Below are positions 40,839 through 61,512 of a DNA stretch of 64,000 nt, piece by piece. Under the pieces are notes generated by a model that was not told the DNA's origin, made no database searches, and was given only the letters and a program-made list of their open reading frames with translations. A program made the position numbers and the translations under genes. Position 1 is the stretch's first letter, and each line of letters starts with the position of its first letter. Origin of the DNA: a virus; IMG/VR virus record IMGVR_UViG_3300044878_000082, positions 1-64,000 of that record; one strand, given 5' to 3'.

Positions 40839-40991
40839 ATATATTCTATGTTTCAATGACCTTTTCAATAGTTTTGTGAAATCTGTTTAATTATATAGCA
40901 GCTATAACAAAATACGTTGTGGTCGCAATTGGTAAAGGCAGAATGCCGATTCCACCCCACTTATACTTATCCGATAAGTAAGGACTCAAAC

Positions 40992-43202
40992 ATGTCACTT
41001 CTGAAATACAAAGGTTCCGCTGGCTCGGCGCTGGCTAACGTGGTTTCTGCGCTGAAGCAAACCGTTGCTACCCAAGGTAGCGAGTTCTCCTCAAAAGGCA
41101 CTACCGGCAACCTGGTCTCGATGGAGAGCCTGGACGAAGCCGGCCACGCCGAACTGCATCGCGTCTGTAAAGACCTGTCTTCGGAAATCCGTGACGCGTT
41201 CAAAGCCCTGCGTCCTTCGATGGAAGACGGCGAAGAAGGCGGCGAAGAGCTGACCGAAGTACAACTGGAAGCTGGTGCCATCGCAGCCATGGCCGCAGGC
41301 GACCCTGCTGCTTACGCCGACGTAGCAATGCGTTCCCAGGCCGAACAAGGCGCTGGCATCGACGGCGTTGTTGACATCGGTTCGAGCGGTGCTGCTGGTT
41401 CCGTCGACACCCGCGACACTCCTTCGCTGGAATCGTTCGACGAACGTGAACTGGCCAAGTTCCTGCCTTACTCGATCGCCTTCAACGTGAAAGCGTCGGT
41501 TCAGGACAGCTTCTCGGAAATGTTCTACCCTACTACCGTTGTTCCGCCAGAACAAGGCGGCCTGGACATCACCGTTCGTCGTACCCTGGTACACAACGCC
41601 ATCCAGCACAGCAACACCGGTAAGGCCACCAACTGGAATCGTAAGAACCTGGTTGACGCCGCAATGGACCACACCATCTTGGCTGACGAGAGCACTGCTC
41701 TGGTTCCAGTGGTTCTGGCCAACGGCACCAACGCCGACATGTTCATCGACGAAAGCCTGCTGGCTCGCGAAGTTCGCCGCATCAGCAACGTTGACGTGAC
41801 CACCGCTCCACTCGCTATCAACCAGGAACTGAACCTGCTCGGCCTGTCCCAGCACCCTGGCCTGATCGGCGCTGGCGTGATCGACCACACCGACGCAATC
41901 GACAACAGCATTGGCCTGGACAAGATCTACGTTCAGATCGACGCTGCTGGTCCTCTGACCGATGGCGCTGACGTTATCGCTTTCACCACTCGTCGTCTGG
42001 CTCGCAGCCACTTCGTCAAGTCGGTTGAAGGTGCAAACCGTGAGATGAACCTGAACTTCCGTACTTCGGATCTGGTTCTCGACGCCAACACCAAGAACGT
42101 TGCCGGCGTTACTCCGGACGTACTGGCTGCCGTCGTATCGGGCGAACTGACTGTTCGTCTGGCCGTGAACCTGAACGGTGAGTTCGATACCCAACTGGGT
42201 AACGGTCGCGTTTACAGCTCGCCTGTAGTCGTTGACAGCATCGTGAACAAAGACGGTGTTGACATCTCCCTGACCGCTGGTGCTGGTGCAGCTATCGTTG
42301 CCTCCTTGGCCGGTTCGAAGGTTATTGCTTACGAGCTGAAAGCTGCTCGTACCAACAGCAACCGTCGTACCCGTGGTCTCCTGCTGGATACCAACGATCG
42401 TACCTTCCGTTTCCACATCCCACTGGGCGCTCCGATCTCGGCTCCTTCGCCAGCCGGTAGCAACCGTGACGCACGTGACCTGGAAGCACTGATCAGCGCT
42501 GCTCGCGTTCGTAACACCAACAACGCTGTGACCCGCCTGCTGAACTACGCAGAAACCCTGCGTGCTTACGCTGTCAGCGTCAAGCGTAACGACACCATTC
42601 CAGAAGTGGAAGGCGTCGGTCGTTTCCTGGTCAAGCCTTTCTTCGAAGAGAAAGAAATCGACCTGGAAGCTCAGGTATCGTCGATCCGTGACATGGACCG
42701 TGCCGAAGACATCAACGCGATCCTGGTTAACGCCATTCGTGACGTGTCGTACCGCATGTACCGTGACTCGGGCTACCAGCCAGCTCTGAACGCTGCCGTT
42801 GGTGGTTCCCAGCAGCCAAAACTGCTGATCGGTACCGACGTAGTTCTGCAACGTCACCTGATGGTCGTTGGCGACAGCCGCACCTTCGGTATCGCGTTCC
42901 CTGAATACCAAATCGAAAGTTCTTTCGACAGCCGTATGAAGGACACCATCGTCATCGCCCTGACCCGTACCGGTCAAGTCGAAGGCATCGACCCGCTCAC
43001 CTTCGGCGTTCACGCCTGGATTCCTGAGCTGGCTTCGAGCATGATGGTTCAGCGCGACGGTGGTACCTATCCAGAGGCCATGGTTCAACCACGTAACCTC
43101 CAGATCAACCACCTGCCGATGATGGCGATCATCAAAGTGAAAGGCCTGGACAAGGTCCTCACCTCCAAGGTGCCTGTATCTACCCAAGAGGTGCAGCCCT
43201 AA
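40992..43202 (+). CDS. major capsid protein (phiKZ gp120-like)
   Basis: ~736 aa, extreme codon bias, AAGGA RBS, S-x-E sites in N-terminal region, RTNSNRRTRG and NHLP motifs, synteny with DnaB. Confidence 0.9.
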   Translation: MSLLKYKGSAGSALANVVSALKQTVATQGSEFSSKGTTGNLVSMESLDEAGHAELHRVCKDLSSEIRDAFKALRPSMEDGEEGGEELTEVQLEAGAIAAMAAGDPAAYADVAMRSQAEQGAGIDGVVDIGSSGAAGSVDTRDTPSLESFDERELAKFLPYSIAFNVKASVQDSFSEMFYPTTVVPPEQGGLDITVRRTLVHNAIQHSNTGKATNWNRKNLVDAAMDHTILADESTALVPVVLANGTNADMFIDESLLAREVRRISNVDVTTAPLAINQELNLLGLSQHPGLIGAGVIDHTDAIDNSIGLDKIYVQIDAAGPLTDGADVIAFTTRRLARSHFVKSVEGANREMNLNFRTSDLVLDANTKNVAGVTPDVLAAVVSGELTVRLAVNLNGEFDTQLGNGRVYSSPVVVDSIVNKDGVDISLTAGAGAAIVASLAGSKVIAYELKAARTNSNRRTRGLLLDTNDRTFRFHIPLGAPISAPSPAGSNRDARDLEALISAARVRNTNNAVTRLLNYAETLRAYAVSVKRNDTIPEVEGVGRFLVKPFFEEKEIDLEAQVSSIRDMDRAEDINAILVNAIRDVSYRMYRDSGYQPALNAAVGGSQQPKLLIGTDVVLQRHLMVVGDSRTFGIAFPEYQIESSFDSRMKDTIVIALTRTGQVEGIDPLTFGVHAWIPELASSMMVQRDGGTYPEAMVQPRNLQINHLPMMAIIKVKGLDKVLTSKVPVSTQEVQP

Positions 43203-43266
43203 GCTGCTTCCAGGGATGGTACAAATCACTAGACTTCCGGGTCTGGTGTTCGCTCCACACCCTTGA
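43198..43266 (+). other. putative +1 frameshift extension of the capsid protein
   Basis: CCC-TAA at 43197-43202; +1 frame reads PKLLPGMVQITRLPGLVFAPHP-TGA-TGA. Confidence 0.55.
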
Positions 43267-43308
43267 TGATTCGTCGTCAGGGGTGAGTCCTTTAAGTGGG
43301 GACACACT

Positions 43309-49974: not shown

Positions 49975-52866
49975 TTAATGGTTGTCTTTCCGAGGACGCT
50001 TGCTGCGTTCCAAGAAGTCTGCCAGTGCACCACCACCGCCATTGGATTGACCCAAGTCGGCTTCTTCACTTACATCCTCCTCTTCTTCCTCAGCATCCGG
50101 TTCAGGCTCTTCTTCCTCTTCCTCAGAAGCGTCAGGTTCCTCCTCCCCTTCGGTGTCGTCTCCAGCGTCGGCATCATCACCGCCTCCTTCGTCGTCACCC
50201 ATATCCCCTAGATCGTCATCTCCACCTAGGTCATCGTCGCCCATGTCATCATCGTCACCACCCATTCCGTCGTCATCGCCGGAAGAGTCGTCGCTGTAGT
50301 CATCACCGCCACTCGAACCACCACCTACTTCGATGTCCTTGTCAGCTTCCACAGCTTCAGTCAACTCGTTGCGTTTCTTTTGAGCTTCCGCAACTTGAAT
50401 CATGTAACCTTGGATACTTGCCGCAATGGCATCAACGTGTTCGGTGTGAGTCGTGAGCAAGTCGATCATCGGGTGCTTCTCTTCCGTGAAGGTCACCAGA
50501 TCAGCCAACTCAGGCATGACGTTGTTGTCACGCAACCACTTACGTTTGAAGTGCGCCAACATGGCCGCCTTCACAACCTCTACCGAATCAGCTTGATCGC
50601 CCAACGAGGTACCATCGAGGAAGTCAGCGTTGAAGTATGCTTCGAGGCACTTCTCCAGACCTTCGATGTACTTGTCGTAAGCTTCCATCTGACGTTCCAG
50701 CGTAATGCTGTCTGGACGTGGTAAGGTTACGGTCAACGAGTTGATGAACTCTGCTACGATGGCATCAACATCCACGTTAACGTCGGTTGGGTCGTTGTCG
50801 TCAGCTTTCGCTGCGTCATCGGCCTTCTGCAACATCTTCTTGTTGGCTTCCACGGTCTTGCGGAGCTTGTCCATCAAGTTACCGGAGTTCAGCACGTACT
50901 TACGGATAAACTCACCCAACAGCGCGGTGAACTTGTCTTGGTACAACATCACTCGTTTGGTCAGCAACAGGTTCGAGGTCACAATAGAAGTAGCGAACTC
51001 AACGTTGTAGCCGTTGTCCACAGTCTCAGGCGACAAGCCCAAGGACATCAGGAACTGCTTCTTCAGGTTGTCTTCGAGGTCAGTGTTCGGTGCAGCTACT
51101 GAACGTTGACGGTCTTCAACTTCCATCCGAGTCTCAGGATACGCAGGAGAACCCTGGACGTTCAAGTCAACGCCTGCGTTTTGCAGGAAGTTAACAATGT
51201 CCACAGGAGAAGACGCACCCAGTGGGTACGACGCCTGACGAGTCTGAGTGTAGTTGTGGACGAGCTTCTCGACAGTACCAGACGGATCTGGGTCAGCCGG
51301 ATCGAGTGTAATGTTCAGACCCGTGTGAGGGGTCGAGTTCTTGATAGCCGCCATGGTGTTGGACAGCATCATCATTACACGCAACGAAGCGAGGATCTTG
51401 TTGTCTTCGAGCAGCGACTTACCCACGCCGTAGCGGTTGTAGTCAAAGGCGAAGTACGTAACCAGTTCCGCAGGCACGAACAGCAACTGAGTGGACATGT
51501 TGGCAAAGGTACGCGCCAGCATGATACGGTACACTTCCAACGGACGAGAGATCTCGATGTTGTCGGCGTAGATACCGTTTCGCAGACGAGCGATCAGGTC
51601 TTCCTCTACGAGCTGTGCGTAGATCCGTGTGGCTTCTTCGGTGTCGATGTCCGAACGTTGTTGGTAGCCTTCAACCGTACGTTGACCTTGGGAGATCAAC
51701 TGACTGGCCATGTCCTTGTTGATGGACATGTTCATGTTCAGATCGTTGTAGTACTCAGACCGGTTAGCCTTCACCACTGGGTTGCCTTGTGGATCGAGAA
51801 TCACAAAGTAGCCGATGTGTTCATCAGGCGAGCCTGGAACGTGTACGGGGATGATCGACTCTGACGGCAGACGCATGACCAGTGGGTGACCCACGGTAGC
51901 ACGTTTGATCTGCTCACCAGTCTTCACACCTACAACTGGACGAGCCGCTTGCAGACGGGGACGGTAGAACGACATTTCGATGTCATCACGAGACACCTCA
52001 TTGTTGGACTCCATACCAAAGCCTTGACGCTTAAAGGTAGCCGCCAAATGCTTACGACGTTGCAGCTCGTGGACGAACGGAGCCTTCAACAGATCCGGGT
52101 TGTCCGAGACCGAGATCTTGGTGTCAAACCCTTTCTTCGCCAGACGTGGACGCAGCATCCGGAAGTTCTGGGTGTAGTACTGGTTCATGTCCTCCATGGA
52201 CACTTTCATGCGGTTCTTCGGTACGGACTTACCGTCTTCGAAGGTGGAGTCACCCAAAACGCCGATGGAGAAGTTGAACAGACCACTGGTGTCAACCCGG
52301 CCTTCCATACCTACACCGGCACGTTCCCCGTTGATGATTTCATCCACAGATGACTCTGGAATGATCATTACAGGGTAGGAGCCCTTCTTAAACAGGACGT
52401 CTGACAAAATACCCGGCAGTTGGGGATCTATTTTATAGACTTTGGTGAAAAATTCTTCGACTACACTGAGGAGTACACCAGTGATCTCCCCCTTCAAAGA
52501 AGACTCGTTACAGACGTAGTTCAACTCCGTCGTAACCATGTCTTTCGGCGAAAGGATACTGCTGACCAGAATCTGTTCTGCCAGCTCGGTATCTGGGAGC
52601 ATCTGGTAAAGGTTTTCTGCATCGGTCACGTTACCGGCGGTAATGTCCGAGACTTTATTCAGATAACCAGTTGTGGGGATGTCGACGCCTCGTGAGGGAC
52701 TGACGGAGTTGCTGTTCCCCAGTGACTCATTGTTCCTTACAAGTTTGCTAACAACAGCGGTGGCTAGGGGCTTCTTCTTGAGCAGCCCGAGTTTCTCGAA
52801 ACGCCGCTTTTGACTATCCAGCCCCAGCATTTGTAGCTGGTTAGAGTCAGAATCAGAACCAGACAT
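49975..52866 (-). CDS. portal protein (phiKZ gp129-like) with acidic C-terminal tail
   Basis: ILVSSILSPKDM, GHPLVMRLPSESIIPVHVPG, YRIMLAR, GLSPETVD; G/S-M-E sites; recalled synteny. Confidence 0.75.
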   Translation of the reverse strand: MSGSDSDSNQLQMLGLDSQKRRFEKLGLLKKKPLATAVVSKLVRNNESLGNSNSVSPSRGVDIPTTGYLNKVSDITAGNVTDAENLYQMLPDTELAEQILVSSILSPKDMVTTELNYVCNESSLKGEITGVLLSVVEEFFTKVYKIDPQLPGILSDVLFKKGSYPVMIIPESSVDEIINGERAGVGMEGRVDTSGLFNFSIGVLGDSTFEDGKSVPKNRMKVSMEDMNQYYTQNFRMLRPRLAKKGFDTKISVSDNPDLLKAPFVHELQRRKHLAATFKRQGFGMESNNEVSRDDIEMSFYRPRLQAARPVVGVKTGEQIKRATVGHPLVMRLPSESIIPVHVPGSPDEHIGYFVILDPQGNPVVKANRSEYYNDLNMNMSINKDMASQLISQGQRTVEGYQQRSDIDTEEATRIYAQLVEEDLIARLRNGIYADNIEISRPLEVYRIMLARTFANMSTQLLFVPAELVTYFAFDYNRYGVGKSLLEDNKILASLRVMMMLSNTMAAIKNSTPHTGLNITLDPADPDPSGTVEKLVHNYTQTRQASYPLGASSPVDIVNFLQNAGVDLNVQGSPAYPETRMEVEDRQRSVAAPNTDLEDNLKKQFLMSLGLSPETVDNGYNVEFATSIVTSNLLLTKRVMLYQDKFTALLGEFIRKYVLNSGNLMDKLRKTVEANKKMLQKADDAAKADDNDPTDVNVDVDAIVAEFINSLTVTLPRPDSITLERQMEAYDKYIEGLEKCLEAYFNADFLDGTSLGDQADSVEVVKAAMLAHFKRKWLRDNNVMPELADLVTFTEEKHPMIDLLTTHTEHVDAIAASIQGYMIQVAEAQKKRNELTEAVEADKDIEVGGGSSGGDDYSDDSSGDDDGMGGDDDDMGDDDLGGDDDLGDMGDDEGGGDDADAGDDTEGEEEPDASEEEEEEPEPDAEEEEEDVSEEADLGQSNGGGGALADFLERSKRPRKDNH

Positions 52867-52913
52867 TATACAACTCCCAGTGACGTTTTAAAAGTTGATT
52901 GGAGGACCTAGAC

Positions 52914-55745
52914 GTGTCCAACGCTTACTATAGACTCTACGTTGACTCCATGATTCTCATGGCGAAAACGATTGTCATCAAGAGTGAAGCGACTGCTAAC
53001 GCGATGAACGTTGGGTTGAACGAACGGGGACTGGACGTTGATGAAAACGATCCAACCACCTGGAAGTACTACCTCAACCTGTCGGGACGTTATCATTCGA
53101 CTGACACACCGATGACAGTGACGTCGTTGGATACTCGTGAAGAGATTCCATTCGATGTCCAAACGCTTTCAGTACATCGCAGAACTTTGCGGGACTACGC
53201 TTTCGGTACACGTTTCTATGAGCAATTGGTTAACCGGTACCCTGAGCAGAGAGATCTGATTCACGGTATCTTGAATCCGGTGGACATTGACGTAGCGATA
53301 GCCGCACCAGATGGTAAGATCCTCTACATCGACCAGTTCCTGATCGAAGAGAACGAAACCAACTTGGTGAGCCAGATCCAAGACCGCATCGACGCATTCA
53401 TGCTACGGTACAACGTGGCTGAGTTCGTTATGGTTGACGACCTCTATCCAGCCGCTCACTTGGCGCTACTGTTCTTAAATTTACCCCTGTTCATTGAGGA
53501 CGCACGACTCACGAACTGTCATACGGAACAGGTTCACAGTTTCCATATTCGACAGTACCTGGCCAGTCACGGGAGACTGGACACGTATATCTCCCACCTC
53601 GACAAAGAGCAGATGCTCTTCCTTTATAGGAACATTCTGTACATCCAGCGCAACGCTGGTAAACAGGATACCTTCGAGTGGTTGATCGACAAAATCATGA
53701 CACACCGCATGTTACCGGTGGCTGAGTTCAATTTACATCATAACGTAAGTGAGCAGCCGGACAACTTGTACCCGACGGTGGAAGTAAAGCGTGTTGACCT
53801 GACGCGCTTTAAGAGTGGCAACCCGATCGACACGTTCTCTGTGGAAGAGATCTGTAACCGAGCAGCGTTTGTAGCGCCCGGTAACTACGATCAACTCGAC
53901 GCTACGATTGCTAAAGTCACCGACCAGATGACCCACAGCTCTAGTAACAAACTCAAGACCAAAATGCTTGAGTCTTCCGTCGTCGACCGCAGTAACGATT
54001 ACGCCCTCACGTTCTCAGACGTGTTGCTGAACCACTGGCTGTACTTTGCTCAAGAAGGTTGGTACAAGACGATCATCTCGTTTGACAACCCCCTGACTGG
54101 CGATCAGTTGTGGTACAGCGCGAAAGATGCGTTCATCTTGTGGATCTACGCCCTCAACCGTTCTCTGGGTCAAGACCTGACTTGGGTTCCAAATCCTGAC
54201 GCGGTGATGGTGCGTAAACAGTTCCTCCCGACCCGTGCTGACCTACGTAAGATCACCGAGTCCAAGCGTGTCCCTGACTCTGTACTGGATGCTTTGCTGA
54301 AAGACCAACCCGTCTTGAATGACTTGGTCTCGGTGGAAGCGTTCTACGACAAGTGTGTTCAGATCCACCATGCGTGGAAAGAGCACAACTGGATCTACAC
54401 CAGTCAGGAACATTACGAGGCCCGTGGTCAAGCCGAAGCGGCTGCACTACACCTGTACCAGAACAAGAACTGTCAGCTCGATAACGGCACGCCGATTACC
54501 TACGACCAATGGTTGCGGGAACATCAGCTTGACGTCACCAACTTCTCTAAAGCGGAGTTTGAGCTGTTAGCGGCTAACCTGCTGGCACTATCCACCGGTA
54601 CCAACTTACACGTCACAGTGAGCTTAGAAGAGCTTCAGGCCGCAATGATTCGCCTGATGACTCAACTGAGCAGTTACTCGGTGCAATTCCTTCGGGAGCT
54701 GCGCGGTACTAACATGATCTCACTGAACTGGTCGGCTATTCGACAAGGTGACGATGACGGTCAGGGTGAGGGTCACATGTACGTGCACGAGGCTAACGTC
54801 TACGTGCAAAACATGGATGGTAAGGGTAGCCACTATCAAGCCGAGACGCTGGACAACGCTACGTTTGAAATCACGAACAGCGCTGGCGAACACGGCGACA
54901 GTGGCAAGTACGACAACACGGTTAACTTCGCGTCTGACGGTTACTCCAAGTTCAAGATGCGTTTGACAATCCCGACCATCTACTGTTCGGTACCGGATGT
55001 CAAACCGCTAGAGCTGGACGACGTCATCAACCAGCAAGCTATTCCGGAATACCTGTACCTGCGGATGGCACCACCGAACATCGGTAACTACATCCACATC
55101 AACACGGTTCTGACTGAAACTGACCTTGACGGGTTTGTGTACTCACCGACTCCGGTGATTCCATGGGCCGACGTAACGTTGAATGGTTTCGACTACCCAC
55201 TGTTCGATGAGACCGCACTCAACCTGAAAGACTTGACCGGTTTCGACTACGACGTGATCCCTGTGGATAAGTTGTTGTTGGCTAACCAACTGAGTGGGTT
55301 CGAGTACGAGGTGTTGGGTGTTAAGCTGGCGCTGACCAACTACCTAGGTGGGTTTGAATACGCCACCATCGACGGCAGACTGTCACTCTCGACGAACCAG
55401 TCTGGGTTTGACTACCGTGAGACACCGGTTCCTCCACTGGATCTGAACCTAGAGCTGAGTGGACTGGAATACAACCCGGTTGTGTTGGAGTTGGATCTGT
55501 TGGACGGCTTGGCGGGCTTGGAATATGAAGTTCCAGCCAAACGTCTGAACCTGAACACCAACCTCAACGGTTATGACTACCCAGTTGCTGATGATCCACT
55601 GTTCATCAACTTGGGCGACTTCGATTACATCCCTGATCTGTCTAACCTGATACTACGCACCCGCTTGCCGGGCTTGGTGTTGAGGCAGGATGATGTTCCG
55701 AAGATGCGTCTTAACGGCTTGGTGTTGAATCCGCCACTCGAGTAA
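52914..55745 (+). CDS. virion structural protein (phiKZ gp128-like) with C-terminal peptide repeat array
   Basis: GGAGG RBS + GTG; TWKYYLNLSG.YH, HSFHIRQYLASHG, LFLYRNI, QLSSYSVQ; divergent from portal. Confidence 0.8.
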   Translation: MSNAYYRLYVDSMILMAKTIVIKSEATANAMNVGLNERGLDVDENDPTTWKYYLNLSGRYHSTDTPMTVTSLDTREEIPFDVQTLSVHRRTLRDYAFGTRFYEQLVNRYPEQRDLIHGILNPVDIDVAIAAPDGKILYIDQFLIEENETNLVSQIQDRIDAFMLRYNVAEFVMVDDLYPAAHLALLFLNLPLFIEDARLTNCHTEQVHSFHIRQYLASHGRLDTYISHLDKEQMLFLYRNILYIQRNAGKQDTFEWLIDKIMTHRMLPVAEFNLHHNVSEQPDNLYPTVEVKRVDLTRFKSGNPIDTFSVEEICNRAAFVAPGNYDQLDATIAKVTDQMTHSSSNKLKTKMLESSVVDRSNDYALTFSDVLLNHWLYFAQEGWYKTIISFDNPLTGDQLWYSAKDAFILWIYALNRSLGQDLTWVPNPDAVMVRKQFLPTRADLRKITESKRVPDSVLDALLKDQPVLNDLVSVEAFYDKCVQIHHAWKEHNWIYTSQEHYEARGQAEAAALHLYQNKNCQLDNGTPITYDQWLREHQLDVTNFSKAEFELLAANLLALSTGTNLHVTVSLEELQAAMIRLMTQLSSYSVQFLRELRGTNMISLNWSAIRQGDDDGQGEGHMYVHEANVYVQNMDGKGSHYQAETLDNATFEITNSAGEHGDSGKYDNTVNFASDGYSKFKMRLTIPTIYCSVPDVKPLELDDVINQQAIPEYLYLRMAPPNIGNYIHINTVLTETDLDGFVYSPTPVIPWADVTLNGFDYPLFDETALNLKDLTGFDYDVIPVDKLLLANQLSGFEYEVLGVKLALTNYLGGFEYATIDGRLSLSTNQSGFDYRETPVPPLDLNLELSGLEYNPVVLELDLLDGLAGLEYEVPAKRLNLNTNLNGYDYPVADDPLFINLGDFDYIPDLSNLILRTRLPGLVLRQDDVPKMRLNGLVLNPPLE
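55095..55742 (+). repeat. 12 tandem ~18-aa protein repeats, core L-x-G-[FLY]-[DEV]-[YL]
   Basis: LDGFVY, LNGFDY, LTGFDY, LSGFEY, LGGFEY, QSGFDY, LSGLEY, LAGLEY, LNGYDY, LGDFDY, LPGLVL, LNGLVL. Confidence 0.9.
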
Positions 55746-55814
55746 CTTACCGTGGACTCTCACACATCCTTTTAACCGAGGGTGTGTGGAGTCCTTTCTT
55801 TTTTTGTCTGAGGA

Positions 55815-57074
55815 GTGAAGATAGTGCTTGACACAATCGGTTTGCTCACCTTATCTCCTCGAGCGGCTTTGCTGGAACTGATCAACTCGCGGAATGACGT
55901 ACAGTTACAGGATGACTGGATTGCCATCTTGAACCCTACGGTTGTCTCGGGTCGTGAAACCGAAGTGACGCTCAAGGTGCGAAAGAGCTTTGATCCGTTC
56001 GCCCCCGTTCCGTTTCAAGGGGAGACCAAATTCACCTATAACCGTTTGGACATCACAGAGTTCTTCATGGGTGCGAAGATCAACCTGACGATGCCCTTAC
56101 CGACGACTACCAGTGCGTTCTTGGAGGTGTTGACCAACGAGTACGGCTACGTGTTTGATTCGGATGATTTCTATGAAGACATCATTACTGTGGCCAATGC
56201 TCATGGCTATCGGTTGCGTGCTACTCCTCGTTCTCTACGGTGGATTGGGGAGTACGCTGTAAACCTGATGCCTCGGGAAGACCTCGAACTGATGGCTAAG
56301 GTAACGGACTTGGGTTCCTTGAATCCAGTGCTGCACCAAGGGCGTCCGTTTGTCACCCACAACAAACCGTTCACTGACGGTCTCTACTACGGTAGTTACC
56401 TCAAGAACATCCGTAAAGGGGTGATCGTTGACGGTGTGTACCTCGCCAGCATCATGGGGAGCATCTATTCCGGCCTCAACGTGGGCGTAGGGAAGACTTG
56501 GACGTACAGTCCTACTGCTGGGCCTAAGAACCTTTACGGTGCTCAGGTGAAGTATAACGGACATGTGGAGGACATTGGGGCTGTTCCGTACAACAAGAAC
56601 GCCACCAAGGTTTTGATCATCGAGCTGAACCCGACGCTCTGTACAGACGTCGCCGGTACACTCGTCATCTATTACAACTCCCGCATCAACGTGGTGATTC
56701 CAGAGTTCCCGATTGTCTACAAGCAACCGGCTGAACTGTTGGGTCTGGGTCAAGTCCACGGGCACAGCTACCCTGCACAGATTGTCCAGTATCCATCGGA
56801 CTACGAGTTCAAAACTGACGGGTTGAACATCGACTTCTTGAACACGATTTATCGTCAAGAGAATGCGGTGGGCGAAGATCGCTTTAAGTGTGTGAAGCGT
56901 CCGTCGCTGAATAACCTCTACGGGGCGAAGGTGTTGTTCAACGGGTACAACCGGAAGTGGCCTGAAGCATACAACGTGTACTTCGGTTACATCTGGGTGA
57001 TCCAACTCAACGAGCAGTACTGTACGAACCTACGGGGCAACCTGTTGATCCACTATAACCTGTCGAAGCTGTAA
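55815..57074 (+). CDS. virion protein of the phiKZ gp130/gp131-like family
   Basis: LLELINSRN, FTYNRLDI, A.P.SLRWIG; duplicated NLYGA.V.[YF]NG...C....G.L.I.YN domain. Confidence 0.75.
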   Translation: MKIVLDTIGLLTLSPRAALLELINSRNDVQLQDDWIAILNPTVVSGRETEVTLKVRKSFDPFAPVPFQGETKFTYNRLDITEFFMGAKINLTMPLPTTTSAFLEVLTNEYGYVFDSDDFYEDIITVANAHGYRLRATPRSLRWIGEYAVNLMPREDLELMAKVTDLGSLNPVLHQGRPFVTHNKPFTDGLYYGSYLKNIRKGVIVDGVYLASIMGSIYSGLNVGVGKTWTYSPTAGPKNLYGAQVKYNGHVEDIGAVPYNKNATKVLIIELNPTLCTDVAGTLVIYYNSRINVVIPEFPIVYKQPAELLGLGQVHGHSYPAQIVQYPSDYEFKTDGLNIDFLNTIYRQENAVGEDRFKCVKRPSLNNLYGAKVLFNGYNRKWPEAYNVYFGYIWVIQLNEQYCTNLRGNLLIHYNLSKL

Positions 57075-57085
57075 GGAGTCTCACT

Positions 57086-57658
57086 GTGTTGGAATTAGCA
57101 ACTGTTTTAAAGAGCACGGGCAATGAGACTCTGGTCGCGTTGTTCCAAGACTCGAATGACGTCTATCTGGACATGGGTCACTTAGACCTGACTTACTCCA
57201 GTGCTGCGGACACGATCAACGTCGTCGCTACGGCTCGTGTGACGGCTCTGGATGGTACGGCGGGTAAGTACAAAGGGGCGTTCACCGTGAAGTATAAACG
57301 CGGTAACGTGACGGCACTGATGAACGGTGTGGTGCAACTCCCTTTCCCTGCGGTGTTCCCATTCACCTTCGCTACCCTCAAGGCGGGTCTCAAAGCCCAG
57401 TACGGTTTGGTTATCGAGGCACAGGACGTGTTGATCCCCAATACGACCACGGTGATGACTGACGCTACTTCGATCACGGCTGGTATGGCGGTGTCGGGTG
57501 TGGTGGAACTGAAGGTGGCTGATAAGTCTCCTCGGTTCATTCCGAAGTCGGCGAATGGTGGTAGCTTCTTCATTAAAGTGGTTGACCCTGCGGGCGGTCA
57601 ATTGGATTACTTGGCGGGCACTACGACGCTGGGTTCTGTCACTACGATGGACGCTTAA
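57086..57658 (+). CDS. virion protein, gp131-like N-terminal domain
   Basis: TAAGGAG RBS; Y.G...V.YKR, L...YGL, SPRF pattern shared with upstream gene. Confidence 0.7.
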   Translation: MLELATVLKSTGNETLVALFQDSNDVYLDMGHLDLTYSSAADTINVVATARVTALDGTAGKYKGAFTVKYKRGNVTALMNGVVQLPFPAVFPFTFATLKAGLKAQYGLVIEAQDVLIPNTTTVMTDATSITAGMAVSGVVELKVADKSPRFIPKSANGGSFFIKVVDPAGGQLDYLAGTTTLGSVTTMDA

Positions 57659-57692: not shown

Positions 57693-57775
57693 TATGTACA
57701 GTTATACTGTGAACCAGATTAATTTAGTTGGCCCTGTGTCGACTCTGTCACTCCTTGTTGATAAAGGTTTTTCAA

Positions 57776-58642
57776 ATGAAAACGATTACCCGTAGTGTCT
57801 GGGGTTCATCCCTTCAGACCTCTTTGCTTCTGGGTCAACGCCCAACGATTCTGGACCACACCACGCTTAACGAGAAGTTCAATGTCTTCCCAGACGAAGA
57901 ACTCAGCCTAACTGAGCGACCGGCCATGCAGTACTACTGTATCGGCAACGGTGGCCACAAGAACATGGTAGGCGCCGATGGGGTTCCTTACACATCTCCT
58001 TTGCCACACCGAGCTTCCGACGCTGCTCTGTATCGTCACTTGCCTTTTGTACTGCGCCGTGTCGATAATGACCTAGACGTCATTGCGCGTGGTCGTTACG
58101 CACTGCGTGTCCTGCTGACCATCGGTGGCGTGAACTACTGGGCTTACTACCTCAAGCGCATCAGCTTGTCGAACACCGCCCCGGCCATCAACCACACCAT
58201 CGTCGACGGTGACCAGAAGTCCACCGAACCGTACGTGCCGAACCTGGCCAACCTGAACCCGACGCCACCTGTGATGTCGAACACCGGTGTGATCAGTTCG
58301 TCTGGCGACTACCTGTCGACCTCGAGCATCCTGACGCTGATCTTCAGCGAAGCCGACGTGAAAGAACTGATCGACGCTTGCCGCATCATGTTCGACAACG
58401 AAGCCTACGCTGTGATCTCCGAGATCGGCCTGTGCTCCGGTATGGATCGCACCCTGACCGTGCCGGGTCCTGGTAACACGCAATTCAACATGAAAGAAGT
58501 GATCGCCTGTCAGATCAACTCCTTCATCACCACTCACCACTCCGTAGCCTTCACCAACAAAGGCTTCACTCAGGACATCGAACTGGGTGCTACCGAGCCG
58601 TTGCTGTCTGACGCCGACTACGTGAGTGCTAACAACGGTTAA
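57776..58642 (+). CDS. conserved virion structural protein (phiKZ gp139-like)
   Basis: TTLNEKF, IGNGGH, PFVLR..DNDL, AYYLKRI, ISEIGLCSG.D, G.TEPL. Confidence 0.75.
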   Translation: MKTITRSVWGSSLQTSLLLGQRPTILDHTTLNEKFNVFPDEELSLTERPAMQYYCIGNGGHKNMVGADGVPYTSPLPHRASDAALYRHLPFVLRRVDNDLDVIARGRYALRVLLTIGGVNYWAYYLKRISLSNTAPAINHTIVDGDQKSTEPYVPNLANLNPTPPVMSNTGVISSSGDYLSTSSILTLIFSEADVKELIDACRIMFDNEAYAVISEIGLCSGMDRTLTVPGPGNTQFNMKEVIACQINSFITTHHSVAFTNKGFTQDIELGATEPLLSDADYVSANNG

Positions 58643-58648
58643 TCGCTT

Positions 58649-59239
58649 ATGTTGTTTATCCCAGAACACAGTCGTTACTTTCGTGTAGGCGCGATCGACC
58701 CCGGTACAGACACGTTGGGGACTAGCATCCTCGACGTGGATCTTTTCACTGGCGAGATTATCCTTCGGGACGTCAACACCCTACACGGGAGCCGTAACAT
58801 GCGTCGGTATCCCGGCGTAGAAGAAGTACATGGCAGTCGATGGGCTAAACTCCATTCCCATGGCGTGGAGCTGTTGAACTGGATGCGATACTTTGGTATC
58901 CATTCCTTGATCTGCGAATCGCCCTTTCTAGGGCGGTTTCCACAGGCATTCGAAGCACTGGTTGAATGTAAAACTGCTATTCGCCGGGCACTGTACGAAT
59001 ACGATTTGTGTATGCCATTGGAAACAGTCGATCCCCCGTCTGCAAAGATGGCGGTAGGGGTGTCGGGCAAGAGCAAGAACAAGGACGATGTCAAGTGGGC
59101 CATTCTGAAGTTACCTAACTTCCGAAATGAGTCTGGGAAGCGCATCGAAGATCTCGATGAGCACTCCACTGACAGCATCGCGGTGGGTTACTTCAAATGC
59201 TTAGCGTTAATCAATTTCGTTAAGGGTGCGGGGATATGA
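58649..59239 (+). CDS. RuvC-like Holliday junction resolvase
   Basis: AIDPGT..LG, ICESPF, P.SAK.AVG....K.DV, H.TDSIAVG. Confidence 0.8.
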   Translation: MLFIPEHSRYFRVGAIDPGTDTLGTSILDVDLFTGEIILRDVNTLHGSRNMRRYPGVEEVHGSRWAKLHSHGVELLNWMRYFGIHSLICESPFLGRFPQAFEALVECKTAIRRALYEYDLCMPLETVDPPSAKMAVGVSGKSKNKDDVKWAILKLPNFRNESGKRIEDLDEHSTDSIAVGYFKCLALINFVKGAGI

Positions 59240-59964: not shown

Positions 59965-61512
59965 TTAGGCGAGTTCAGACATCATCTTCTTGGAGTCAGC
60001 CAGTTTACTGAGAGGGTGGGTGATGTGATCGCCCCACTCCATCACGGTTGTTTCCATGATACCCACCGCACGAATGTACGAGGTAAAGTACTTCACGGGT
60101 TCGTCGTTCATCCACCGAATCACCGCCGCCACTTGACGCTGTACCGAAGGACTAGCCTTCGAGCTGATCGCCCACGCTTGAATACGTTCGTAAACTTCCA
60201 GTACTTTATCGAACTTAGTCAGCGCGTCATCAATCGAACCGTTGAAGTTACTCAGCAGCGTAACTGTAACGATACCAGCCGACGCCTTGGATACTTCCCC
60301 GTACTGTGGGAAACGGATCTTCAATTGTTTGCTGATCTGACTACTGGAGACTGGAATCGAGCTGAACGCAGCGAGTTGCATCAGGTTTGGATTGTGCTCA
60401 CCCACCTTTACCAGAGCCGAACCACACGGCATCGTGTCATCGGTACCAACGAAGCTACGGAAGATCTTGTAGACTTCTGCCCGTTCGGTTTTCGTCTGTT
60501 CCGCTAGATGACGAATCGCGTTGGACTTGGTGCCATCGTACGCAACCCCACTGGTAAATACTTTCTCAGCCTTCAGTGCGATCTTCATCAGCTCAGCCGC
60601 CAACAACTTACCTTGGGAGCGACCTTCTTTACCACGGAAGGCAGTGTCCCAGACCATCTCGTTGACGTCATCATGAGAGATCAGAACGTGGTCTTTGGCG
60701 GTATCGCGGAAGGTTCGTTGACCGTTAGCCGCCATGGCTGTGATCAGTGCGTGTTTAGCGTGACCGATCTGTAACTCGGAGACCGCTTTCACGTCCTTCT
60801 TGCGCATGGCAACAATGTCTTGACCATCGACAGTCATCGGTCGGGACGAGTCCACCGGACCATCGCTGGAACGCACCACAACGTGTGCTGCCGCTGGAGT
60901 GAGCAGTACCAGTTGTTCTGGCTTCTCTTTCCCCAATGGCGTGGTTGCGAGGTTGTCTAGGACGCGTTGTACCGAGGAGACGTCCTTCAGGTGCTTGAGG
61001 AGGTTCTTCTCAGCCAACTTAGAGATCGCCGCATCGTTACCGCCTTCCTTGGCTTTCTCCAGTTGGAACTTGATCTTCTTCTCTTTGCGTTTACCGAACC
61101 CAAAGATCAGGAGAAAGAAGTCACGGATACCACGCAGGATCTTACGGATCAGGGCAACCATCCCTTCCCAGATCTTGGCTATCCCTTGGGCCAGCCCTTC
61201 CATTGAAATCTGGCGACCGTCTTCGTCATTCGCTTCCATCGACGGCGTGCGAATAACCAAACCGATACGCTGGTGTACCGACTGAAACGAGTGACCGATA
61301 AACACGCGGTCCATTCGAGTCAGTTGGCTCGTACCTTCAATGTCGTCGAGGATACTTTCCAGCGTGGCTACAATTTCAGCAGTGGTATCGTGGTCGGCGA
61401 TGGATTGACCAACTTCAATACCTGCAACGGTTACGTCATACTGCGTGTGTTCGACTGAGTCGTCGTGATCAGCGAAGTGTTCCTGATCGAAGTGCTGTGC
61501 GAGGTTGCTCAT
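59965..61512 (-). CDS. internal head protein (phiKZ inner-body/ejection protein type)
   Basis: Acidic N-terminal region with ATLE, PSME, ISME sites then amphipathic helix IAKIWEGMVALIRKILRGIRDFF. Confidence 0.7.
   Translation of the reverse strand: MSNLAQHFDQEHFADHDDSVEHTQYDVTVAGIEVGQSIADHDTTAEIVATLESILDDIEGTSQLTRMDRVFIGHSFQSVHQRIGLVIRTPSMEANDEDGRQISMEGLAQGIAKIWEGMVALIRKILRGIRDFFLLIFGFGKRKEKKIKFQLEKAKEGGNDAAISKLAEKNLLKHLKDVSSVQRVLDNLATTPLGKEKPEQLVLLTPAAAHVVVRSSDGPVDSSRPMTVDGQDIVAMRKKDVKAVSELQIGHAKHALITAMAANGQRTFRDTAKDHVLISHDDVNEMVWDTAFRGKEGRSQGKLLAAELMKIALKAEKVFTSGVAYDGTKSNAIRHLAEQTKTERAEVYKIFRSFVGTDDTMPCGSALVKVGEHNPNLMQLAAFSSIPVSSSQISKQLKIRFPQYGEVSKASAGIVTVTLLSNFNGSIDDALTKFDKVLEVYERIQAWAISSKASPSVQRQVAAVIRWMNDEPVKYFTSYIRAVGIMETTVMEWGDHITHPLSKLADSKKMMSELA

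Follow-up and report, generated by a model that had tools for sequence, protein, structure and literature searches.

Two adjacent genes, called A and B here, follow directly a gene for a protein with a C-terminal array of short repeats in a 64,000-nt stretch of viral DNA (the window; positions 1 to 64,000 of the IMG/VR record IMGVR_UViG_3300044878_000082). An earlier note, made from the letters alone, had proposed that each of the encoded proteins binds a peptide tag and presents another one, so that head-to-tail chains would be formed by strand donation and nucleated on the repeat array and on frameshifted capsid subunits. The questions raised by this locus are what the A and B proteins are, how their subunits may be joined and to which parts of the virion such chains could be attached.

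Genomic neighborhood of genes A and B

The window was recognized as a part of a phiKZ-like jumbo phage (Chimalliviridae) and is located on a 113-kb IMG/VR contig. The following features were identified upstream and downstream of the two genes:

49975–52866, minus strand: portal protein gene (phrog_3004)
52899–55745, plus strand: baseplate wedge gene, homologue of phiKZ gp128 (PDB 9xqs_C, E = 4e-123 over aa 7–635)
55760–55789, plus strand: hairpin with a T-rich run after it, in the gap separating gene A from the wedge gene
55815–57074, plus strand: gene A, DUF7941 protein, 419 aa counted from GTG 55815 (the numbering used for residues below)
57086–57658, plus strand: gene B, 190 aa
57666–57681, unstranded: palindromic GC-rich hairpin directly 3' of gene B
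57728–58642, plus strand: spoke protein gene, homologue of phiKZ gp139 and Goslar gp32 (PDB 9xpg_A, E = 1e-61; Pfam DUF7208)
58649–59239, plus strand: RuvC-like resolvase gene
59965–61512, minus strand: phiKZ-type internal head protein gene (phiKZ_IP)

The hairpin with the T-rich run preceding gene A looks like a terminator. The genes are arranged in the order portal, wedge, A, B and spoke, with A and B located between the wedge and spoke genes. The corresponding order is gp129, gp128, gp127 and gp126 in phiKZ, where gp127 and gp126 adjoin the wedge gp128 and the portal gene as A and B do, and gp36, gp35, gp34, gp33 and gp32 in Goslar. The same gene order was kept in seven IMG/VR relatives, the gene A products of which were 63–80% identical. 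Among cultured phages, the best tblastn identities of gene A to its homologues were below 30%, and neither the megablast search with the locus nor the tblastn searches with gene B and with the wedge repeat region gave any match; the gene A locus has no close cultured phage. The spoke gene as called begins with TTG 57728, which adds 16 residues in comparison with the phiKZ and Goslar homologues, the starts of which are better fitted by the ATG at ~57776.

Domain layout and kinship of the A and B proteins

Gene A matched the Pfam DUF7941 profile (PF25613) with 133.3 bits and E = 1.5e-38 (cut-off 27), and chain 0 of PDB 9xqd (PHIKZ127) with E = 1e-18. Based on sequence, fold and gene order, it is the counterpart of phiKZ gp127 and Goslar gp34. 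Because all 17 gene A homologues start with M-L-D-T-I-G and a GAGGAG ribosome-binding site is positioned 8 nt upstream of the GTG at 55824, the true start of the gene is probably this codon, giving a protein of 416 aa. The first GTG overlaps the gene's own GAGGAG ribosome-binding site (55815–55826). A single-chain AF2 model of A, calculated with an 18-sequence homologue alignment as the input, had domains with pLDDT of 70–93 and two linkers below 50, which divided the protein as follows:

55815–56273, plus strand: N-terminal globular domain (N-domain) of A, aa 1–153, AF2 pLDDT about 80
56274–56378, plus strand: linker 1 of A, aa 154–188, with the motif at nt 56280–56327 (aa 156–171), pLDDT <50
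56379–56684, plus strand: C-domain 1 of A, aa 189–290 (AF2), aligning to the C-terminal half of gp127
56685–56750, plus strand: linker 2 of A, aa 291–312, disordered, with conserved P299, E307 and L308
56751–57074, plus strand: C-domain 2 of A, aa 313–419, a duplicate of C-domain 1, pLDDT 80–93

The duplication of the C-domain was detected by internal BLASTP (40% identity, E = 2e-9) and as a second DUF7941 match in A at Pfam profile positions 180–275. The form with two modules, each composed of a linker and a C-domain, was common to all 24 of the 24 near-length A homologues. The only structural match of the A model found by Foldseek was the N-domain of phiKZ gp127 (9xqd_0, from the map of the outer peripheral baseplate; TM 0.79, E = 4e-10). 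The N-domain fold of gp127 (PDB 9xqd) is thus the same as in the A model, whereas the single C-domain of gp127 stands against two in A. Similarly, the layout of Goslar gp22 (N-domain, linker, C-domain) matches that of A, to which a second linker and C-domain module is added.

Residues L151, L157 and G167 were nearly invariant among the A homologues, and the linker-1 motif was conserved down to 32% identity even though it was disordered in the monomer model. One concern about the proposed chains was that the motif might be a strand buried in the subunit's own complete fold. In the AF2 monomer, the motif of A was placed in a disordered, unburied linker, with only a short helical turn predicted in the first half of this linker. 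According to this model, the motif behaves as a short linear motif and not as a buried strand, and the proposed strand donation is unproven. D-L-G-G-L-D, a full match to L-x-G-L, occupies the place of the motif in relatives of A.

Gene B was divided into two parts:

57086–57583, plus strand: N-domain of B, aa 1–166 (DUF7941 match; hhalign to the A family, 98.3%; gene order)
57584–57658, plus strand: C-terminal tail of B, aa 167–190 and the stop codon, with the motif at nt 57599–57646 (aa 172–187)

The match of gene B to Pfam DUF7941 was borderline when taken alone (28.6 bits against the cut-off of 27), and plain BLASTP of A against B gave no significant match. The relationship was confirmed by hhalign of family profiles built from 18 A and 16 B homologues, which aligned A residues 3–171 with B residues 2–187 (98.3%, E = 1.1e-14), and the search of the genome with the B-family profile recovered the A N-domain (E = 2.6e-11). 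The domain of ~150 aa that the earlier note had assigned to both open reading frames was thereby confirmed together with its signature residues: Y-[NK]-R, [EQ]-Y-G and S-x-R-[WF] corresponded, in each of the two families, to columns without or almost without variation. The two motifs were found exactly where they had been placed, and the linker motif of A and the tail motif of B occupied the same hhalign columns; judged from this alignment, they are homologous to each other.

Conservation of the 24-aa tail of B extended over the seven relatives and throughout a family of proteins of about 190 aa, and in the family alignment the tail came after the last strand of the N-domain. By its position, B corresponds to phiKZ gp126 and Goslar gp33, the orthology being positional only. 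In comparison with phiKZ gp126, which has 147 aa and no tail, B possesses the conserved tail, and in its architecture of an N-domain and a tail, it is the same as Goslar gp23. The family to which the proteins belong, their fold and domain layout, the order of the genes and the conservation of the motifs were all observed at this locus. By sequence, A and B are new, divergent members of the family described in 2026, and the features that they add are the duplicated linker-plus-C-domain module in A and, in B, a gp126 counterpart with a tail.

Tag-like peptides in the wedge protein and behind the capsid stop codon

The C-terminal part of the wedge protein (about nt 55095–55745) consists of 12 repeats of ~18 aa each with the pattern L-x-G-[FLY]-x-[YL]. 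This array is absent from phiKZ gp128. The number of wedge repeats was about 5 to 12 among the relatives with gene A products 63–80% identical, and the last two units (of the R-L-x-G-L-x-L type) were the best conserved among them. The spoke protein, unlike the wedge repeat number, was nearly invariant among close relatives. The array was also considered as a ruler for the ten-protomer spoke, and this reading was set aside because the number of repeats varies among close relatives.

The motifs of A and B had been described as weaker copies of the wedge repeat. The HMM of the 12 wedge repeats did not score the single A and B sequences above chance, the corresponding PSSM gave p = 0.95 and p = 0.49 for A and B, respectively, and the HMM of the penultimate repeat missed both proteins. 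At the family level, the linker profile of A (18 homologues) was compared with a tag profile of 13 members, of which seven were penultimate repeats of the wedge and six were the capsid +1 peptides described below, and an ungapped match with p = 0.003 by column shuffling was obtained; the B tails alone gave p = 0.32 in the same test. The description is therefore only partly supported, for the A linker as a family, and is unproven for the tail of B. Two metagenomic DUF7941 tails scored significantly with the wedge PSSM of the window (p = 0.002 and p = 0.004).

In other lineages, the likeness was evident. The DUF7941 linkers of Goslar carry a second motif, L-small-G-[LF]-x-[YF], and the C-terminus of the Goslar wedge has three to five L-x-G-L repeats, while about ten L-x-x-L-x-Y-P repeats were found in the wedge of LucasX. 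In Totoro, one DUF7941 protein contains five tandem L-x-G-L-[DE]-Y-P units in its linker, and the heptapeptide E-L-E-G-F-D-A is common to one DUF7941 tail and one wedge repeat. Four to six tandem L-x-G-[LF] units follow the N-domain in Totoro 02610 and another DUF7941 protein. Proteins of this type form the clearest link between the DUF7941 linkers and the wedge-type repeats, and they could possibly act as branching subunits.

The same kind of peptide was detected at the end of the major capsid protein gene:

40917–43202, plus strand: major capsid protein gene, with the stop codon TAA at 43200–43202
43201–43266, plus strand: peptide in the +1 frame after the capsid stop codon, with a tag as in wedge repeat 11

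The HMM of the penultimate wedge repeat matched this peptide with E = 9e-6, and it was the sole non-self match in the six-frame translation of the window. Five relatives had the conserved peptide in an unchanged frame relation, even though the DNA was only about 70% identical in this region, and all indels between the capsid stop codon and the peptide were multiples of three. The residue that varied among the relatives was the x of R-L-x-G-L. The context of the stop codon (window 43191–43269) was CC[CG]-TAA-GC in five of the six sequences and CAA-TAA-GCG in one, so a simple slip on a proline codon does not explain every case.

In Goslar, Totoro, FLC9, RP12 and PhiEaH1, the capsid gene ends with TGA, which is followed in frame by 15–28 codons with [DSN]-G-F; the expected number of G-F dipeptides in 20 residues is only 0.07. 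In phiKZ, PhiPA3 and Noxifer, the TGA is followed by a conserved extension of the [YF]-L-E-D-G type. An in-frame extension of 15–30 codons was thus present in all eight of the surveyed chimallivirus capsid genes ending with TGA, and an extension of this kind was absent from the surveyed genes ending with TAA. In the survey of seven other chimallivirus lineages, no capsid tag or extension was noticed. In LucasX, pEa_SNUABM_48 and RAY, an L-x-G-L tag is located inside the normal C-terminus of the capsid protein, and every capsid subunit of these phages would bear the tag without recoding.

The Goslar capsid extension had its best match among 59,000 six-frame residues in the tail of gp23 (E = 7e-4). 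In Totoro, the pattern L-[ES]-G-F-D recurs in the capsid extension, in one DUF7941 tail and in one wedge repeat, the likeness of the extension to the tail being at the pattern level, as it was not recovered by short-peptide BLAST. Taken together, the conserved stretch has the appearance of a leaky-stop extension of the chimallivirus capsid protein that is common to the whole family. In several lineages, a relationship to DUF7941 linkers and tails is evident from the compared sequences, both for the wedge tags and for those that follow the capsid stop codon.

The docking of wedge tags on the N-domain of A, as the earlier note would have it, was examined with a fusion that imitates natural read-through. 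The final two or three tags of the wedge, the spacer of 23 codons and the N-domain of A were folded as one chain with AF2, with the stops read as Gly and the A homologues as the alignment; the wedge gene and A share the reading frame. The N-domain was modelled with pLDDT of 80–89 and the tags remained disordered at 26–30 with no docking, in a test of low power, which was weakened by the single chain, the hydrophobic spacer and the lack of a co-evolution signal, was read out by pLDDT and secondary structure, and paired wedge tags with the A N-domain, a pairing different from that of linker and N-domain. AF2 docked no peptide in cis, either in the A model or in the fusion with wedge tags.

Proposed assembly of the DUF7941 proteins on the virion

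In phiKZ, gp128 and two gp87 subunits make up the heterotrimeric baseplate wedge, and a spoke of five gp139 dimers leads outward from gp128 to gp127; at the tip of this spoke, gp127 belongs to the outer peripheral baseplate and not to the head, with one gp127 modelled per star lobe (PMC13250141). This location of the solved homologue of A gives no support to placing A and B mainly on the head.

The layout of DUF7941 proteins was described as an N-domain followed by a disordered linker and then a C-domain, with ten paralogues in Goslar, of which gp23 and gp22 were estimated at about 2140 and 580 copies per virion, respectively, and were unseen in the maps (bioRxiv 10.64898/2026.04.21.720040). 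According to the same preprint, AlphaFold 3 predicts head-to-tail dimers of gp22, gp23 and gp126–gp127, in which a protomer's linker and C-domain are placed on the next N-domain, and gp126–gp127 was modelled into unexplained phiKZ density (bioRxiv 10.64898/2026.04.21.720040). Purified Goslar gp22 makes filaments visible in negative stain, and the authors proposed a cloud of filaments with six anchoring sites in the peripheral baseplate (bioRxiv 10.64898/2026.04.21.720040). The wedge tags and the capsid extension are not mentioned there, and the text of this preprint (bioRxiv 10.64898/2026.04.21.720040) has no mention of readthrough, frameshift or stop codon; nothing on a tag in a capsid-stop extension was found in the literature search.

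Since the chain mechanism was recently proposed for DUF7941, the chain model drawn from the letters of this locus is a rediscovery of it. Its head-to-tail arrangement agrees with the AlphaFold 3 dimers and the gp22 filaments and is not new, and of the supposedly undescribed system, it is the anchoring to tags of the wedge and capsid that is apparently unpublished. The comparisons presented here suggest such anchoring on the wedge array and on recoded capsid subunits.

The best explanation of the data is that A and B are DUF7941 virion proteins that are probably chained head to tail through the docking of the peptide following one N-domain on another N-domain. The N-domain would be the docking module, and the disordered conserved peptide located after it, which is a linker in A and a C-terminal tail in B, would be bound as a ligand by another subunit's N-domain; as each N-domain would dock the peptide of another subunit, the subunits would join head to tail. 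In such a chain, B would be held through its N-domain by the linker and C-domain of A and could recruit further subunits with its tail, and the two linker-plus-C-domain modules of A could hold two partners. The baseplate location (phiKZ cryo-EM), the docking (AlphaFold 3) and the filaments (Goslar gp22) are taken from the literature, and by homology A and B may be expected to behave likewise in this phage, including their presence in the baseplate. It should be kept in mind that the head-to-tail model in the literature is based on AlphaFold 3 and on the negative stain of one protein, and that one gp127 per star lobe of phiKZ also fits a static structural role.

Such a role is the core of an unlikely alternative, in which A and B would be peripheral baseplate parts of fixed copy number, the segment after the N-domain would only link domains or make contact with a neighboring baseplate protein, and its likeness to the repeats would be a convergence of leucine-rich motifs of low information. 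The single gp127 per star lobe in the phiKZ atlas and the low copy number of gp128 are in agreement with it, as are the negative HMM and PSSM tests on A and B of the window and the negative AF2 fusion. However, it does not account well for disordered linkers conserved down to 32% identity, for the ability of Goslar gp22 to form filaments alone or for the near-identical heptapeptides present in the capsid extension, wedge and DUF7941 tails within single genomes. A broader reading, which may be entertained although the balance is somewhat against it, is that the DUF7941 N-domains are receptors of L-x-G-[FL] tags and that chains nucleate on the 12-tag wedge array and on a recoded minority of capsid subunits; in that case the baseplate and the head alike would be decorated by A and B, and this part of the reading is held with the same reserve. 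It is favored by the likeness of the capsid +1 peptide to the penultimate wedge repeat (E = 9e-6) with the frame kept in five relatives, by the best match of the Goslar capsid extension to the tail of gp23 (E = 7e-4), which is the most abundant DUF7941 protein and the tail of which is predicted to dock on the next N-domain, and by the resemblance of the A linker profile to the tag profile (p = 0.003). The L-[ES]-G-F-D pattern in the three Totoro proteins and the Totoro protein with five tags in its linker point in the same direction, and ~580 copies of gp22 and ~2140 of gp23 fit many anchor points more easily than six. On the other hand, the wedge tags stayed at pLDDT 26–30 when fused to the A N-domain, the single A and B sequences and the B tail profile were not above chance against the tags, and the solved gp127 contacts the gp139 spoke and not the wedge tail or the capsid. 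Moreover, the recoding of the capsid gene is putative and conservation of its slippery context does not extend to every relative.

It is also conceivable, with a low probability, that the tags are real and their receptor is a third protein, such as a gp139-like spoke subunit or an assembly factor, with the DUF7941 tails being ligands as well. The array has 12 repeats, the phiKZ and Goslar spokes have 10 protomers and the wedge contacts the first spoke dimer, which would suit a receptor of this kind, but the repeats vary from about 5 to 12 among close relatives with a nearly invariant spoke protein, purified gp22 polymerizes without a partner and the AlphaFold 3 models put the linker on the DUF7941 N-domain. 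Generalized to the whole of the Chimalliviridae, the proposal of N-domains as tag receptors would describe a common decoration system, for which the case is suggestive and still short of even. The N-domain would be the receptor, and its peptide would be found after every DUF7941 N-domain, in the wedge arrays and on the capsid, where it would be constitutive or added by a leaky UGA or in the +1 frame. If this is true, the fibre cloud of DUF7941 proteins grows from many sites on the baseplate and head, and its density is set by recoding efficiency and repeat number.

In chaperone-usher pili, which are assembled by donor-strand exchange, a peptide of one subunit completes or binds the next one, giving polar chains. 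The proposed DUF7941 chains are alike in outline, with no relation in sequence or fold, so this is an analogy only. In the read-through coat protein A1 of Q-beta and in frameshift decoration fusions of tailed phages, a minority of the capsid subunits gains a C-terminal extension. The capsid extension described here resembles Q-beta A1 in the putative recoding at the stop codon (leaky UGA or, in this phage, +1) and differs from it in being a tag of 15–30 aa, not a domain, and in matching motifs of baseplate proteins.

The DUF7941 proteins are among the most abundant unplaced virion proteins of chimalliviruses, with about 2,700 copies in Goslar. As they often occur with sugar-binding or hydrolase domains, they are likely devices of first contact in host recognition. 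If the N-domain reads a portable tag, the location of the missing DUF7941 copies would be explained, the conserved sequence behind the capsid stop codon of many jumbo phages would gain a function and a simple handle for the attachment of cargo to virions would be available. Six metagenomic proteins were found in which two tandem DUF7941 N-domains are joined by a linker and, in some of them, followed by Ig-like repeats; these proteins are good potential single-chain models of the head-to-tail contact.
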